A DNA stretch of 44,550 nt from a phage. Location: sequence record PZ445417.1; one strand, given 5' to 3'. Of the stretch, positions 24,718-44,550 are shown one piece after another (positions within the stretch are counted from its first letter, which is position 1; every line of letters starts with the position of its first letter). Under the pieces are notes generated by a model. That model was not told the origin of the DNA and made no database searches. It saw nothing but the letters and a program-made list of their open reading frames with translations. Position numbers and translations under genes: made by a program.

Positions 24718-24747
24718 ACTATAGTGCAACCAACCTATTGGTTGCAA
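24718..24747 (-). promoter_or_regulatory. sigma70-like promoter within a 22-bp palindrome TGCAACCAA-ccta-TTGGTTGCA
   Basis: On the minus strand: TTGCAA, 18 bp, TATAGT. The palindrome spans 24725-24746. Confidence 0.45.
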
Positions 24748-25205
24748 GTAAATTTTGCAACGTTTATTGCGTAAATTTTCGGGACTAAATCGCTACACGC
24801 CCGACGAATTGCCGCGATGTTCTTCGGACAGTCTTCAATGATGACCAGTTCCGACACGTCCGCATAGCAGACCATTTTGAACACAGCGCACGCCTTAAAC
24901 TCTGGCGGCGGGGTGTCGTCCAACATATGGCGCATAAACAACCGGCCTACTGGGAAGACCTCTAGTTGTTCGGCGGTGGTCTCCCAGCATTCTCGCTGCC
25001 GGTTGGTCAGATACGCTATCTCGAAGCCTTGCTCTTTATACATGCGCAACAGCGGCAGCATATCCATGTTCAGGTCTTCGCGTACGTGCGCTTTGTGCCA
25101 CTTCGCCCAAAATGTTGATTTGGTTTTTATACCAGGAACCAGGTCGGCGCGTGCATCACTCGAACCATTAATTACGCCATCAAGATCACAAATCAGTAGT
25201 TTCAT
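24735..25205 (-). CDS. HAD-superfamily phosphatase (nucleotidase or 3'-phosphatase-like)
   Basis: 156 aa. HAD motif I LICDLDGV (DxDG) at the N-terminus. Confidence 0.6.
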   Translation of the reverse strand: MKLLICDLDGVINGSSDARADLVPGIKTKSTFWAKWHKAHVREDLNMDMLPLLRMYKEQGFEIAYLTNRQRECWETTAEQLEVFPVGRLFMRHMLDDTPPPEFKACAVFKMVCYADVSELVIIEDCPKNIAAIRRACSDLVPKIYAINVAKFTCNQ

Positions 25206-25426: not shown

Positions 25427-25892
25427 GGAGTTCTCCTTCGCTCATTATTTCAATTTGTGCGCTGCCGGTTGGTGGCGCTTCGTCAAATATTATCAATTGC
25501 TGGCACTTGTTATTGCTCGGACCGACTTCACCGGTGACAGCGTGTATAAATCTAATCCGCCAGTCCAGAAGAATTATCAGGTTTGCAGTCCTCCGGGCCA
25601 GCCTCGCCCACTTCGTCGACGTGTCCTGATTCAGTAGCATGACAGTCCGGCGACCGTGCGCTGCGCACTCGACCCACGGCAGCGGATCGGAATATGGCGG
25701 ATTGCACCACTTCCACCCTTTCAACTCTGCCCAGTCCACATCAAGCGCGCTGTGCTCTGCCGTGAAGTAACGCGGTAGCAGATGATTGGCATCGCTTGCC
25801 GCCATATCGTAACGGAATCGGTATTTCCGACGAAGCGGTTTAAATAACGCTGGCGGCGTGCGCCAGCTATCTTTTTGCTCACTCTTCTGCAT
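25407..25892 (-). CDS. DNA N6-adenine methyltransferase (phage Dam-like)
   Basis: 161 aa. N-terminal DSWRTPPALF and the catalytic NPPY motif (WCNPPYS) of amino-methyltransferases. Confidence 0.75.
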   Translation of the reverse strand: MQKSEQKDSWRTPPALFKPLRRKYRFRYDMAASDANHLLPRYFTAEHSALDVDWAELKGWKWCNPPYSDPLPWVECAAHGRRTVMLLNQDTSTKWARLARRTANLIILLDWRIRFIHAVTGEVGPSNNKCQQLIIFDEAPPTGSAQIEIMSEGELLEYLNR

Positions 25893-26343
25893 GGTCGGTG
25901 TCTATCGCATACAGGGCGATTTTATTGCCGGTCTTGAGAATGCGTTGCACGCGCTTTGACTCCACAGCACTAAGCGGGCGCGCGTCCGGGTAGAAGCTGC
26001 CATTTGTAGGGTTGCGCCACGCCATAAGCACCAAATCTTTACGGTCAACCTTAGACTGGCGACCCTTCGGTCGCACGTACTCCTCAGCACGTTTACAATG
26101 TTCACGCAAACCATCGGCAGTGATGCGGTTTAGTGCAACGCTGGTGGTGTATCCGGTGCGCTGCATAATCCCCATCAGTTCGAAAAGCAGTACGAAGCGC
26201 TCCGCTAGCTCCTGGCGCACTTTCTTCTCTCCTTCATATAGCGCCTGGTTGGTGTCCGCCAACGCGTTCGCACGTTCTGCCTGCTCGCGGGCTTCTAGGC
26301 ATTGCGCGGCCCAGTAATTTTTCTCTTCTTGTAAAATTTTCAT
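25879..26343 (-). CDS. hypothetical protein (154 aa)
   Basis: ATG with GGAGA RBS. Predicted coiled-coil N-terminus. Confidence 0.5.
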   Translation of the reverse strand: MKILQEEKNYWAAQCLEAREQAERANALADTNQALYEGEKKVRQELAERFVLLFELMGIMQRTGYTTSVALNRITADGLREHCKRAEEYVRPKGRQSKVDRKDLVLMAWRNPTNGSFYPDARPLSAVESKRVQRILKTGNKIALYAIDTDHAEE

Positions 26344-41593: not shown

Positions 41594-41835
41594 TTATCTC
41601 CGTCCTGTTGTTTGTTATCATAGGGGCTTCGTCCCTGTTTAACGTGTATGCGCCGTCCGTTCAGGATGGCATTTTAGGCCGGGTGTTATATCTGCTAACG
41701 GCGATGATCTGCGTTATCGGATTGTTGCAAACAGGAGACGTATCTGACACCACCTGGACCGCGTTAATCTGGCTGTTTGCATTGCGCACGCTGCGTAATG
41801 CTGTTTTGAATGGGGTAAAACATGCGATTCAGTGA
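41590..41835 (+). CDS. small membrane protein (81 aa), possible second holin or antiholin
   Basis: ATG overlapping the holin stop (ATGA). Two hydrophobic segments. Overlaps the endolysin start. Confidence 0.45.
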   Translation: MIISVLLFVIIGASSLFNVYAPSVQDGILGRVLYLLTAMICVIGLLQTGDVSDTTWTALIWLFALRTLRNAVLNGVKHAIQ

Positions 41836-42313
41836 TAACGGTCTCCGATTTACGGCAGCATGGGAGACTTTCAGCCCAGTGCCGTATTTCGCGACGAAGA
41901 AAGAGCAGGCCCGCGGCCTGTACACCTGGGGCTATGGTCACACCGGCACTAATCCGCCGCGGAGCATTACCCGTGCAGAAGCGCTGGAGCTGCTCAAGCG
42001 AGATGTGGCGTATGCTGAGGACTGGGTGAACAAATACGCCCATAAGAGCATTAACCAGGCGCAATTTGACGCGCTGGTTGACCTGGTAATCAATGCTGGT
42101 CAAGGTCCGATCATGCCGGACGACGTCGCCGGTGACTTCGACGATGCTGTCCGCCTGGGTGACTGGGCGAAGGTCCGTGCTACTCTGCCACAGTTCCGCA
42201 AGCAAGGCGGGGAAGTGCTGAAAGGGCTGGTCCGCCGAGCAATCGGCAGACAAGCGCTATTTGATGGTAAGCAGTGGGACGTTGCCGAGAAAATCGGACG
42301 TAACGCAGCATAA
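41822..42313 (+). CDS. endolysin (phage lysozyme, glycoside hydrolase 24-like)
   Basis: 163 aa. N-terminal region LRFTAAWETFSPVPYF...GLYTWGYGHT matches the catalytic region pattern of P22/T4-type lysozymes (from memory). Confidence 0.65.
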   Translation: MRFSDNGLRFTAAWETFSPVPYFATKKEQARGLYTWGYGHTGTNPPRSITRAEALELLKRDVAYAEDWVNKYAHKSINQAQFDALVDLVINAGQGPIMPDDVAGDFDDAVRLGDWAKVRATLPQFRKQGGEVLKGLVRRAIGRQALFDGKQWDVAEKIGRNAA

Positions 42314-42491: not shown

Positions 42492-42497
42492 ACCACA

Positions 42498-42524
42498 AGC
42501 CCGGTAATTCCGGGCTTTTTATTT
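42498..42524 (+). terminator. rho-independent terminator
   Basis: AGCCCGG-taatt-CCGGGCT hairpin followed by TTTTTATTT. Confidence 0.7.
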
Positions 42525-42585
42525 CTTGACTTGCAACCAACATAGACGCCATACTGCGACCAATCAACAAGAGGAGTATTACACT

Positions 42586-42666
42586 ATGGCACGTAATGAT
42601 ATTTGGGTATTGGCAATCTGGTCCGCCGCGGCATTTATCGGTATGGTTATTTGCGAATTGCTATAA
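42586..42666 (+). CDS. very small hydrophobic peptide (26 aa)
   Basis: ATG with strong AGAGGAG RBS at 9-nt spacing. Sequence MARNDIWVLAIWSAAAFIGMVICELL is a single predicted transmembrane helix. Preceded by ATTGGT(T/C)GCA motifs. Confidence 0.25.
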   Translation: MARNDIWVLAIWSAAAFIGMVICELL

Positions 42667-42727
42667 CCCGCTGCAATAGGGACCGTGGTATATTGTCCTC
42701 GGTCCCATAATCAGGAAGTGGATTAAT

Positions 42728-43870
42728 ATGCACCCGCAAACTAAAATCACCGACGAGCAATTGATCGCCGAGTTGCAATCCGGCACTACCGCGAAAGAGA
42801 TTGCGAAGAAGTACGGTCTTTCCCTCCGAAATGTCTACATGCGAAAAGCCCGCCTGTCGAAGAAAGGGATTGGTCACGGTAACGATGCCGTAATCCGTAA
42901 GCGCGTTGCCGATGGCTTTGGCGTTAAGCGCGTATCCGCCCTGGTGCGCGGAAATGGCGAAGAAGTCATGTCGTGGGTTATCACTGAGCAGGACAAGGAG
43001 CGCCAGCTTGAGGCAATGCGCGCCGTTGTCGAGGGTATGAACAGCGAAATCACACCGGCAGCACCAGTAAGCGCCCCACCAGTCCCGATCCAGGCACTTG
43101 ACCTACTCAACCTGTATACCGTGTCCGACTTCCACCTGGGCATGTTGGCCTGGGGCGAGGAGACTGGAGAAGACTGGGATATGGCGATCGCCGAAGACCT
43201 GTTCTACCGCTGGTTTGTCGAAGCCTTCGCACGCGCCCCGGACGCAGGCACTGCCGTAATTAATATCCTCGGAGATATGGCGCATTTTGATAGCCTCGAT
43301 GCCGTCACCCCGGCCAGTGGTCACGTACTGGACGCGGATACCCGCTACCAGAAGCTGGTCCGCTACATGATTCGCATGGTGCGCAACGTGGTAGACCTGG
43401 CGCTGCAAAAGCACCACAAAGTCAAACTGCTAATTGTCCAGGGCAATCATGACGAGTCTGGCATGATTTGGCTTGCGGAGATGTTCAATACCCTGTACGA
43501 GAACGAGCCGCGCGTCGATGTGGACACGTCCCCGGACGTATACAAAATGGTGCAGCACGGTAAAACAACGCTGTTCTTCCACCACGGGCACAAAGCGCGC
43601 TTCGATGCTATCGAAACCGTCATGATTTCTAAATTCAGACAGGCTTTCGGATCCAGCGAGTACAGCTACGCGCATGTAGGCCACTTGCATCACCAGAAGA
43701 TTGTTGAATCCCGCAACATGATTGTTGAACAGCACCGGACTCTCGCAGCGAAAGACGCCTACGCCAGTCGTGGCGGTTGGATGTCCGGTCGCAGCGCCAA
43801 CGTCATTACCTACAGCGCCAACTACGGCGAAGTAGCACGCTTAACCATTAGCCCGGAAATGTTGAAGTAA
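42728..43870 (+). CDS. HTH domain fused to a calcineurin-like metallophosphoesterase
   Basis: 380 aa, AGGAAG RBS. N-terminal HTH (TTAKEIAKKYGLSLRNVYMRK). Phosphoesterase-like motifs in the canonical order: DFH, GDMAHFD, GNHDE, HHGH, GHLHH. Confidence 0.6.
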   Translation: MHPQTKITDEQLIAELQSGTTAKEIAKKYGLSLRNVYMRKARLSKKGIGHGNDAVIRKRVADGFGVKRVSALVRGNGEEVMSWVITEQDKERQLEAMRAVVEGMNSEITPAAPVSAPPVPIQALDLLNLYTVSDFHLGMLAWGEETGEDWDMAIAEDLFYRWFVEAFARAPDAGTAVINILGDMAHFDSLDAVTPASGHVLDADTRYQKLVRYMIRMVRNVVDLALQKHHKVKLLIVQGNHDESGMIWLAEMFNTLYENEPRVDVDTSPDVYKMVQHGKTTLFFHHGHKARFDAIETVMISKFRQAFGSSEYSYAHVGHLHHQKIVESRNMIVEQHRTLAAKDAYASRGGWMSGRSANVITYSANYGEVARLTISPEMLK

Positions 43871-43901
43871 CGGCGACCCGTAACCCTCCCAGCCTGCCGA
43901 T

Positions 43902-43930
43902 TTGGTGGGCTTTTTTGTGCCTGTTATAAT
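43902..43930 (+). promoter_or_regulatory. extended -10 promoter upstream of the small terminase gene
   Basis: TTGGTG, 17 bp, TGT-TATAAT. Confidence 0.4.
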
Positions 43931-43999
43931 CCCCTTAGATGGCAGGGCCGTCTCCTATGTTGCCGATGGTCGGCGCATATGAACAAAAGGGCTTATATC

Positions 44000-44550
44000 A
44001 TGGCAGAAATCAAAGTTAAGGGCCGACGCGCCAAACTGGACGGACGAGTAGCAGTAACCCCGCGCCGTAAACCAGGCGAGCAAACCGAGCACACCAATCT
44101 TGGACCTGAAATCGAGTACGGGAAGCGACGTAAAGGCGGCAAATGTGGACGCCCTACTGACTACAGATCCGTTTACTGCGACCAGCTTCGCCGCTATTTT
44201 GCCGACGCCGACGCCTGGCAGGTCAACTACTCCGATAAAGGCGCTGCGCAAGTAATCCCCCGCAACAAAATGCCAACCTTCGGTCGATTTGCCGCGGAAA
44301 TCGGTGTGGGCGTAGCTTGCCTGTATCGCTGGGCGCGCGCACATGAGGAGTTCGCCGAGGCGATGGCTGACGCGATGGAGTTGCAGAAAACTTTCCTGAT
44401 GGAAGCTGGCGGCGTGACCATCGCGGCTGGCTTCGCGACCTTCCTGCTTAAAGCTAACCACGGCATCCGGGACGATATTCCGCTGGATGACGACGAAGAT
44501 GATAACGGCGACGTAGTTGTCGAACCTTCCGGCAAAGGCCAGGGTGAATA
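44000..44550 (+). CDS. terS: terminase small subunit (3' end runs off the window)
   Basis: ATG with AAAGGG RBS. Open to the last base (183 codons plus 2 nt). HTH-like segment FAAEIGVGVACLYRWARAHEEF. Bases 44549-44550 plus base 1 form TAA, overlapping the terL ATG. Confidence 0.6.
   Translation, partial: MAEIKVKGRRAKLDGRVAVTPRRKPGEQTEHTNLGPEIEYGKRRKGGKCGRPTDYRSVYCDQLRRYFADADAWQVNYSDKGAAQVIPRNKMPTFGRFAAEIGVGVACLYRWARAHEEFAEAMADAMELQKTFLMEAGGVTIAAGFATFLLKANHGIRDDIPLDDDEDDNGDVVVEPSGKGQGE

Follow-up and report, generated by a model that had tools for sequence, protein, structure and literature searches.

A gene just upstream of the terminase genes of a Dhillonvirus-like coliphage encodes a helix-turn-helix (HTH) fused to a metallophosphoesterase (MPE) domain, which has an intact, conserved active site and which, by structure and profile comparison, is most like the Mre11/SbcD/T4 gp47 nucleases. 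On balance, we think it likely that the protein is an HTH-tethered, Rad50-independent, Mre11-like DNA nuclease that serves phage DNA metabolism or breaks down host DNA. The window, the whole 44,550-nucleotide stretch of DNA analysed (PZ445417.1), is a complete, circularly permuted genome. The open reading frame list places the gene at 42728..43870 (+), complete with its ATG start and stop codon, and gives a product of 380 amino acids. Purifying selection on the gene is strong: comparisons with three relatives give 55–64 synonymous and 2–6 nonsynonymous codon differences, and synonymous changes outnumber nonsynonymous ones by ~10–30 to 1 among close relatives.

As a find, the gene is an ordinary one: it has been catalogued before and is no new discovery. 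Along its whole length, the product matches PHROG 704 (“DNA repair exonuclease”; E 3.2e-161; residues 5–380 against profile positions 2–390 of 390), a family with more than 2,000 phage records and ~4,700 clusters at 50% identity. It is the ortholog of phage T1 ORF16 (ST16), with 45% identity along its full length (377 residues compared), and the same profile is also matched by ST16 and by homologs from Vibrio, Ruegeria and Lactobacillus phages. Next to these and to the homologs from Dhillonvirus, Klebsiella Webervirus and Jerseyvirus, the window protein is an ordinary member with nothing material to set it apart, and all have in common an HTH-hairpin-linker-MPE architecture. Deposited Dhillonvirus proteins are up to 99.7% identical to it, and near-identical entries are named “calcineurin-like phosphoesterase”, “DNA repair exonuclease” or “transcriptional regulator”. 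The PHROG name is an annotation transfer; we found no biochemical or genetic data for any member of the family in the searchable literature, and no functional study under Dhillonvirus/HK578 phosphoesterase, phrog_704 or T1 host-DNA degradation. A single mention in the virion proteomics literature reports virion association (PMC5945888). NCBIfam matches to UhpA, ECF sigma factors and PdeM were at noise level only, and a preprint on PUA-Cal-HAD proteins concerns T2 denA and is irrelevant to this gene.

Domain architecture and active site

The fusion of an HTH to a metallophosphoesterase, proposed in the sequence-only reading, is real. AlphaFold2, given a 64-sequence alignment, models residues 1–50 (42728..42877, +) as an HTH of the resolvase, LuxR/FixJ or sigma region 4 type, with helices at 9–17, 22–29 and 33–45 (mean pLDDT 93.4) that form a three-helix bundle matching solved DNA-binding domains. 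The window protein itself matches Pfam HTH models weakly (E 0.01–0.1), and better matches occur among its relatives (Sigma70_r4_2 down to 1.5e-9, GerE down to 2.4e-8). The HTH is present throughout the family, evolves fast and is duplicated in some members. It is followed by a short helix, a long beta-hairpin (64–73 and 79–88) and a helix at 90–106 (42878..43045, +), in which G77 and W83 are near-invariant. A structural match to this element was looked for and none was found, repeat-protein matches to residues 67–100 in a single-sequence PDB search being judged spurious; it possibly has a role in docking, dimerisation or DNA contact. A Pro/Ala-rich linker of low conservation (residues 107–120; 43046..43087, +), modelled by AlphaFold2 with no regular secondary structure, leads into the enzyme domain.

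The calcineurin-like domain (residues 121–380; 43088..43867, +) is Mre11/SbcD/gp47/DP1-like, lacks a capping domain and has a beta-alpha-beta-alpha-beta sandwich fold that matches solved members of the superfamily. All five metal-binding phosphoesterase motifs are present and, as the sequence-only reading held, in the canonical superfamily order (DxH / GD / GNH[DE] / H / GHxH). Motif I is SDFHLG (43124..43141, +), which aligns with GDWHLG of T4 gp47 and SDWHLG of Thermotoga Mre11; motif II is LGDMAH (43268..43285, +), motif III GNHD (43442..43453, +), motif IV HHGH (43580..43591, +) and motif V GHLHH (43679..43693, +). Across an alignment of 64 diverse relatives at 32–48% identity, D134 and H136 (motif I), G182 and D183 (II), N240 and H241 (III), H286 (IV), and G318 and H321 (V) are invariant in 64/64, and H186 (II), H285 and H288 (IV) and H319 (V) are at least 90% conserved, as is G287 (IV). 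Between motifs II and III lies a family-specific conserved insert, VTPxSGHxLDxDxR (residues 192–206). The Pfam Metallophos and Metallophos_2 models score 22.9 and 20.1 bits against gathering cut-offs of 27 and 21.5, which are operational, and only 15/64 relatives match Metallophos at E ≤0.01; judged by these scores, the family appears divergent from the Pfam Metallophos seed models.

Comparison with nucleases and other metallophosphoesterases

Three partly independent measures of affinity put the domain closer to Mre11, SbcD and T4 gp47 than to other MPE classes, and so on the nuclease side of the phosphatase-or-nuclease question raised by the sequence-only reading. Foldseek returned Mre11 and DP1 as the best matches. 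In hhalign, the family profile aligned with T4 gp47 at 86.8% probability (E 4.2e-6, 187 columns), an alignment that spans motifs I–V and a common TLAAxD...RGxW segment; lambda NinI, LpxH, CpdA, YfcE and Bxb1 gp47 scored 0.4–9% in this comparison, for which seven single sequences were picked by hand. A profile of the MPE domain alone matched only nucleases among PDB metallophosphoesterases, each at a sub-significant level (E at least 0.065). These sub-significant scores count against an Mre11-type reading, as do two other results: E. coli SbcD did not align past motif III with the family profile (hhalign 2.8%), and T4 gp47 falls into another PHROG and gives no cross-match.

The same comparisons bear on whether the protein could be a PPP-family Ser/Thr/Tyr protein phosphatase with host or phage proteins as its substrates, in the manner of lambda NinI. 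That Ser/Thr phosphatase is phage-encoded and belongs to the same superfamily, which gives a precedent, but the window protein has neither the PPP signature (GDxHG / GDxxDRG / GNHE) nor profile similarity to the family: its motif II is GDxxH as in Mre11, aligning to GDLLH of Thermotoga Mre11, rather than GDxxDRG, and lambda phosphatase scored below 10% in hhalign. We regard this function as extremely unlikely.

Fold neighbours leave the substrate unfixed, because metallophosphoesterases are functionally promiscuous. One candidate substrate would be the cyclic (oligo)nucleotide signals of host immunity, which a counter-defence phosphodiesterase would destroy; the cyclic-nucleotide phosphodiesterases CpdA and Rv0805 are models for its chemistry, and Acb1 and Apyc1 for its biological logic. 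This is very unlikely. CpdA aligns poorly (hhalign 2.8%), a DNA-binding HTH has no obvious use against a soluble signal, and PADLOC gave no match to the protein, which was also the ground for rejecting it as a known anti-phage defence component. Anti-defence genes are usually variable and accessory. The present gene, in contrast, belongs to the persistent core of Drexlerviridae (508/522 genomes; PMC13164509).

The window protein differs from the canonical nucleases in what surrounds the catalytic core. Residues 221–339 of T4 gp47, its capping region, have no counterpart in the window protein, which stops ~25 residues past the aligned core and for which AlphaFold2 gives no additional C-terminal domain. 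Mre11, SbcD and gp47 are usually encoded next to an SMC-like ATPase, whereas this gene has a 26-amino-acid open reading frame and terS as neighbours, and no Rad50/SbcC/gp46-like gene was found in the window genome or in annotated relatives. The N-terminal HTH and the VTPxSGHxLDxDxR insert, in turn, are carried by the window protein and not by these nucleases. DP1, the small subunit of PolD and an archaeal 3'-5' proofreading exonuclease, is 13% identical, has an OB fold and acts within a polymerase complex; the window protein shows no sign of a polymerase partnership.

The best functional analogue is the MPE of Cluster A mycobacteriophages (A10ZJ24 Gp48, Bxb1 gp47, L5 gp54; PHROG 221), which also stands alone, without a Rad50 partner. 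A10ZJ24 Gp48 is a phosphodiesterase that in vitro degrades double-stranded DNA and in vivo the DNA of the host (PMC12287305), and the Cluster A MPE is needed for phage DNA replication and likewise has Mre11 and DP1 as its top structural neighbours (PMC11795197). Membership of one family was rejected: hhalign with the Gp48/Bxb1 gp47 family gives only 5.7% and 3.6%, over motifs III–V, a similarity at superfamily level, Bxb1 gp47 maps to phrog_221 and not 704, the window protein has no phrog_221 match, and Bxb1 gp47 has 255 residues and no N-terminal HTH. PdeM, from a ligase-associated repair cluster of Pseudomonas putida, is another stand-alone MPE, a Mn-dependent DNA endonuclease (cited in PMC12287305), with a weak profile match to the window protein around motif III (E 0.11).

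Genomic position and neighbouring genes

The gene does lie just upstream of the terminase genes in the window, where terS starts at 44000, 129 nt 3' of it, and terL occupies 1–1386. The sequence-only reading had taken this position as a hint of packaging, which the comparison with other phages does not support. Across 13 contexts sampled in different phage groups and a published 522-genome pangenome, adjacency to terS is confined to Dhillonvirus, some relatives in that group having an extra gene in between; it is absent from T1, where ORF16 is ~32 kb from terS, and from Drexlerviridae, Jersey-/Kaguna-like phages, phiEa1H, VAP7 and Ruegeria phage V11, so there is no conserved linkage to terS/terL across relatives. 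Lysis, replication/repair or tail-module genes are the neighbours in other groups, and a packaging role deduced from synteny was rejected. A role in DNA packaging is unlikely, and an accessory nuclease that assists TerS/TerL, whether at pac or on concatemers, is highly improbable. Besides the Dhillonvirus arrangement, PEAT2 has the gene ~1.3 kb upstream of terS, and in T1, in Jerseyvirus and in a Vibrio phage the gene is followed by one for an HNH endonuclease, both of which would suit such a nuclease; against it, TerL itself carries an RNaseH-like nuclease domain, and the gene is set off from terS by a terminator and by a distinct promoter-like element.

The elements around the gene may delimit a small unit. 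An intrinsic-terminator-like hairpin (42497..42517, +), kept in three relatives, closes the lysis-gene transcript, and 3' of it is a sigma-70 promoter-like site, TTGACT, 18 nt, CATACT (42526..42555, +), a candidate promoter of the unit that is conserved in relatives, although such sites are regionally not above chance. A hydrophobic 26-amino-acid open reading frame (MARNDIWVLAIWSAAAFIGMVICELL; 42586..42666, +) with an AGAGGAG ribosome-binding site follows directly 5' of the MPE gene; it is conserved in relatives and is probably co-transcribed with that gene. An inverted repeat, GGGACCGTGG / CCTCGGTCCC (42679..42706, +), lies 22 nt 5' of the start codon, is conserved in relatives and flanks an extended -10-like TGgTATATT (42686–42694). 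It occurs once in the genome (1 match, 0.01 expected), has an RNA fold of -22.6 kcal/mol (z -2.1) and is a candidate RNA hairpin or operator. Directly 3' of the MPE gene are a conserved terminator-like hairpin and T-run (43891..43911, +) and then, before terS, a promoter-like extended -10 (43922..43930). T1 ORF16 also has an annotated terminator directly 3' of it.

These elements could suit a protein whose main task is to bind DNA and regulate late or lysis transcription, or its own expression, with the MPE domain as a sensor or a moonlighting activity. Sigma region 4/LuxR-type HTHs are typical of transcription factors, one relative is annotated as a transcriptional regulator, the conserved repeat covers a -10-like element just 5' of the gene, and the gene sits at the boundary of the lysis and late operons here. 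In Drexlerviridae it precedes the holin-endolysin-spanin cassette in 508/522 genomes (PMC13164509), and Bxb1 gp47, which is also a recombination directionality factor, offers a precedent for moonlighting (PMC11795197). We nevertheless consider a mainly regulatory role improbable, since catalytic residues that do not vary within the family make catalysis the selected function. The inverted repeat is found only once in the genome, and general autoregulation through it was ruled out because many relatives' genes lack an upstream intergenic region of their own. The promoter-like element of terS, moreover, is an extended -10, and extended -10 promoters generally work without an activator.

Neighbours in other phages point more towards DNA metabolism. 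In phiEa1H the order is 5'-3' exonuclease, endonuclease VII, MPE, kinase/phosphatase, one hypothetical gene and ligase; in VAP7 it is helicase, MPE, primase; another phage has Dam, three small genes, MPE, polynucleotide kinase and dNMP kinase; and in Jersey/Kaguna-like phages the gene is in an island within the tail module. Such DNA-metabolism genes favour a nuclease and also invite the idea of end-healing, in which the MPE, together with polynucleotide kinase and ligase, would strip broken DNA or RNA ends of 3'-phosphates or 2',3'-cyclic phosphates, a role to be compared with that of the MPE domain of bacterial Pnkp. A polynucleotide kinase/phosphatase is the next gene in several phages, with the phiEa1H ligase two genes later, this kinase and dNMP kinase are frequent downstream neighbours (PMC13164509), and MPEs are often both monoesterases and diesterases. 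Yet there is already a HAD-type phosphatase module in this phage, at 24735–25205 and far from the MPE gene, the profile and fold neighbours are nucleases and not lambda-phosphatase-like enzymes, and the HTH suggests binding to duplex DNA over recognition of ends; end-healing is therefore quite unlikely.

A proposed stand-alone nuclease and its possible roles

Canonical Mre11 and SbcD depend for DNA engagement on a capping domain and the Rad50/SbcC ATPase. Because both are absent here, we infer that the fused HTH supplies DNA engagement, which would make the protein a stand-alone, ATP-independent nuclease. The HTH, the beta-hairpin/helix element and the flexible linker would hold it on double-stranded DNA, while cutting would fall to the C-terminal phosphodiesterase domain, which is of the Mre11/SbcD/T4 gp47 type and would use two metal ions (probably Mn2+). 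Its job would most likely be in phage DNA metabolism, in host-DNA breakdown and/or the processing of ends and replication-recombination intermediates, for which T4 gp46/47, whose annotation states that recombination and host-DNA degradation require it, and mycobacteriophage Gp48 are precedents. Classical T1 “gene 2.5” mutants reportedly do not degrade host DNA. On the other side, a late-region locus between lysis and packaging genes is an odd place for a gene of early host-DNA degradation, and a second nuclease is not obviously needed because the phage already encodes a PD-(D/E)XK exonuclease.

A bolder version of this nuclease joins an unrecognised class of Rad50-independent Mre11-type enzymes to late-made, self-sparing DNA destruction; we hold this combination to be unlikely, if not strikingly so. 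The rapidly diversifying HTH would then stand in for the capping domain and Rad50, and the protein would be made late, DNA-bound and perhaps even carried in the virion. Host or competitor DNA would be destroyed either as the next infection begins or towards the end of the ongoing one, and the phage's own Dam-methylated genome would escape.

Several enterobacterial siphophage groups that are among those isolated most often keep the gene in their persistent core; they include T1-like Drexlerviridae, Dhillonvirus, Jersey-/Kaguna-like phages and Klebsiella Webervirus, and many of these phages are phage-therapy candidates. For annotation, the three names in current use, “DNA repair exonuclease”, “transcriptional regulator” and “phosphoesterase”, could be brought into agreement. 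If the family is a stand-alone, HTH-guided Mre11-like nuclease, it would show the Mre11 catalytic module working without Rad50, it could explain how T1-like phages break down host DNA or process replication intermediates, and it could matter for the risk of transduction and for the triggering of DNA-damage-sensing defences.

An apparent small transcription unit between the lysis genes and terS

The sequence is a whole genome, circularly permuted and opened at terL (1-1386), and belongs to a siphophage of Escherichia coli that is Dhillonvirus-like (HK578-like). Its final 2.75 kb are 91-95% identical to many Dhillonvirus records, with 155 records matched in total. The gene order is holins, endolysin (41822-42313; Phage_lysozyme E 4e-21), a 53-aa ORF, the metallophosphoesterase (MPE) gene (42728-43870, +, 380 aa) and then terS, which starts at 44000 and runs past the 3' end of the window (44550), so the MPE gene does lie upstream of terS as first proposed. 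The terS product is P22 gp3/Sf6-like by weak Pfam hits, and its TAA overlaps the terL ATG once the genome is circularised; a 168-aa ORF at 43955-44461 (-) is a shadow ORF of terS.

Judged from sequence, the MPE gene appears to form a small transcription unit of its own. A terminator-like hairpin (42497-42517) marks the upstream end, followed by a promoter-like TTGACT, 18 nt, CATACT (42526-42555), and between this site and the MPE gene lies a 26-aa hydrophobic ORF with a good ribosome-binding site, MARNDIWVLAIWSAAAFIGMVICELL (42586-42666, +), directly upstream of the MPE gene. An inverted repeat, GGGACCGTGG / CCTCGGTCCC (42679-42706, +), lies 22 nt ahead of the MPE start codon, with the ribosome-binding site AGGAAG between the two. 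A second terminator-like hairpin (43891-43911) follows the gene, and an extended -10-like TGTTATAAT (43922-43930) precedes terS; every one of these elements is conserved in all three relatives compared. The inverted repeat is unique in the genome (one match, 0.01 expected), encloses an extended -10-like TGgTATATT and folds as RNA at -22.6 kcal/mol (z -2.1). Candidate roles are those of an operator, a hairpin for processing or stabilising RNA, or an element controlling translation. Some homologs also have a tiny membrane-like ORF directly upstream: its product measures 29 aa in Klebsiella phage K50 and 59-63 aa in Jersey- and Kaguna-like phages, where it carries the annotation 'superinfection immunity protein'. 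The pairing may recur among phages or may have arisen by chance.

The leader from the terminator to terS (43888-44000, +) is almost 100% identical across four phages, while coding DNA differs by 5-8%, and it holds two short repeats, AGATGGC..GCCGTCT and GCCGA..TCGGC, that can form hairpins. By its sequence it is probably a late-operon promoter and leader, and is possibly pac-related. In the relatives AV129 and McMelon a 70-aa ORF ('gp59'), with an ATG that overlaps the stop codon of the MPE gene, separates that gene from its terminator, and hence from terS (L002 5075-5287; L007 43861-44073). The ORF is absent from this genome (between 43867 and 43888) and from phage welsh, a clear-cut case of presence/absence polymorphism.

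Architecture and family of the protein

The sequence-only reading described an N-terminal helix-turn-helix (HTH) fused to a full set of phosphoesterase motifs in canonical order, and both parts are borne out. AlphaFold2, run on an alignment of 64 sequences that are 32-48% identical to the query, confidently predicted a structure (mean pLDDT 93.4, pTM 0.82) in which three HTH helices (residues 9-17, 22-29 and 33-45) and a short helix lead into a long beta-hairpin (64-73 and 79-88), a helix (90-106), an unstructured Pro/Ala-rich linker (107-120) and a compact alpha/beta domain (121-380). Pfam HTH matches are weak in the protein itself; among relatives the best scores are for Sigma70_r4_2 (1.5e-9) and GerE (2.4e-8). 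The HTH is present in all family members, its Pfam type varies, and the long member P0142 apparently has two. It is the fastest-evolving part, with a mean identity of 21% versus 44% for the enzyme domain. The five motifs occur in order within the C-terminal domain, and across the alignment D134, H136, G182, D183, N240, H241, H286, G318 and H321 are invariant, with H186, H285, H288 and H319 at least 90% conserved. Because synonymous/nonsynonymous codon differences against three relatives are 55/3, 64/2 and 62/6, the gene is under strong purifying selection.

The protein matches the PHROG 704 ('DNA repair exonuclease') profile end to end (E 3.2e-161). Relatives were found by tblastn in 2,058 phage records, in 1,668 of which one match spans at least 80% of the protein, and the hosts include Escherichia, Klebsiella, Salmonella, Vibrio, Campylobacter, Flavobacterium, Rhodobacter, Ruegeria and Lactobacillus. 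An exhaustive HMMER search gave 4,683 clusters at 50% identity, mostly of 370-420 aa and aligned nearly full length. The phage T1 ortholog, ORF16/ST16, is 45% identical over 377 residues, HTH included. Database names range over 'calcineurin-like phosphoesterase', 'putative phosphoesterase', 'DNA repair exonuclease', 'transcriptional regulator', 'winged helix-turn-helix domain-containing protein' and 'metallophosphoesterase'. Elsewhere in the genome, two labels used in relatives look, from the sequences here, like annotation over-reach. The counterpart of their 'polynucleotide kinase', at 24735-25205 (-), finds no match beyond a HAD-type phosphatase profile (Acid_phosphat_B, E 4e-5, under that profile's cut-off), and the 153-aa protein of 25879-26343 (-), called 'DNA ligase' in McMelon, is without a Pfam hit and not long enough to be an entire ligase.

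A nuclease-like domain with a proposed HTH route to DNA

Between the targeted nuclease and the phosphatase offered by the sequence-only reading, several measures agree in partly supporting a nuclease-like domain rather than a phosphatase-like one. The top Foldseek matches are Mre11 and DP1. When other enzymes were compared with the protein, scores were 15.8 for the PolD DP1 3'-5' exonuclease, 15.0 for Thermotoga Mre11, 14.7 for S. aureus SbcD, 13.8 for LpxH, 13.5 for MJ0936 and 8.4-9.3 for the protein phosphatases PP1 and PP5. A profile of the MPE domain only, searched against PDB sequences, matched only nucleases among metallophosphoesterases (Thermotoga Mre11/SbcD, a P. putida nuclease MPE and Pyrococcus Mre11), all sub-significantly (E 0.065-1.7). 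The profile comparison proposed for separating the two subfamilies was run with hhalign, family profile against seven individual reference proteins: T4 gp47 reached a probability of 86.8% (E 4.2e-6, 187 columns), versus 9.0% for YfcE, 5.7% for Bxb1 gp47, 2.8% each for E. coli SbcD and CpdA, 0.6% for the lambda NinI phosphatase and 0.4% for LpxH. The gp47 alignment spans motifs I-V and a common TLAAxD...RGxW segment. Motifs I (DxHLG) and II (GDxxH) resemble those of Mre11, and motif II is unlike the GDxxDRG of PPP phosphatases.

The protein nevertheless differs from Mre11, SbcD and gp47 in having no capping domain, since it stops ~25 residues past the aligned core and leaves gp47 residues 221-339 without counterpart. 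No Rad50/SbcC/gp46-like ATPase gene is present in this genome, whose large proteins are the terminase, portal, tail proteins, an SNF2-type helicase, DNA polymerase, a PD-(D/E)XK (DUF2800) exonuclease and a primase-helicase. In place of a capping domain and Rad50-type partner, PHROG 704 has the N-terminal HTH, and between motifs II and III it conserves an insert, VTPxSGHxLDxDxR, that gp47 lacks. We suggest that the HTH would take over DNA engagement from the capping domain and Rad50, a role that the beta-hairpin perhaps shares.

Genomic context and possible roles

A role in packaging had been read from the terS neighbourhood. We find no evidence for it: adjacency to terS is specific to Dhillonvirus among the contexts sampled, and other groups differ. 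In T1 the ortholog is ~32 kb from terS, in the order Dam, three small genes, ORF16, terminator, HNH, small gene, holin, endolysin, spanin, and SECphi27, Klebsiella K50 and Pantoea AAS23 are consistent with this Drexlerviridae pattern of an MPE gene before the lysis cassette. Jersey- and Kaguna-like phages carry the gene in a reverse-oriented island inside the tail module. The order is 5'-3' exonuclease, endonuclease VII, MPE, kinase/phosphatase, hypothetical gene, ligase in Erwinia phiEa1H, helicase, MPE, primase in Vibrio VAP7, and MPE followed by a DNA methylase in Ruegeria V11. What recurs across these settings is DNA metabolism and the boundary between lysis and late genes, rather than packaging.

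Mass spectrometry of purified virions of the Dhillonvirus vB_EcoS-B2 identified the ortholog, ORF44 (380 aa, with flanking genes equal in length to those here), from 13 peptides at 36.6% coverage (PMC5945888). Contamination is quite possible, because DNA polymerase I was found in the same preparation (PMC5945888). Alternatively, ORF44 is a virion-associated DNA-bound protein; virion carriage, if true, would fit the gene's late-region position and DNA-binding domain.

Precedents for phage MPEs acting on DNA exist. By annotation, T4 gp46/47 is needed for recombination and for degrading host DNA. Mycobacteriophage A10ZJ24 Gp48, a stand-alone MPE and phosphodiesterase, breaks down dsDNA in vitro, whether linear, plasmid or genomic, as well as the DNA of its host in vivo, acting early as a counter-defence (PMC12287305). 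Its family, PHROG 221, is only distantly related to PHROG 704, which makes it an analogue from a separate family. Bxb1 gp47 (255 aa; L014 6021-6788) aligns to positions 110-363 of the 367 in the PHROG 221 profile, so other members carry a ~110-residue N-terminal extension, reminiscent of the PHROG 704 HTH/hairpin module. Product names in the RefSeq Bxb1 record (L014 5876-6788) are apparently shifted: 'Site-specific recombination directionality factor RDF' is on the 46-aa gp46 and gp47 is labelled 'metallo-phosphoesterase', with further odd labels nearby such as 'phosphofructokinase' and 'sigma-K factor'. Bxb1 gp47 is the published RDF (PMC11795197).

With many deposited relatives and no functional study of any PHROG 704 member found in a full-text literature search, the MPE gene is long catalogued and ordinary as a gene, but not understood. 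We infer its product's activity, substrate, DNA specificity and timing alike, and lean, with moderate confidence, towards an HTH-tethered, Rad50-independent Mre11/gp47-like DNA nuclease in phage DNA metabolism or host-DNA breakdown. In biochemical terms the protein belongs to a known kind of enzyme, of which its architecture is an uncharacterised variant.
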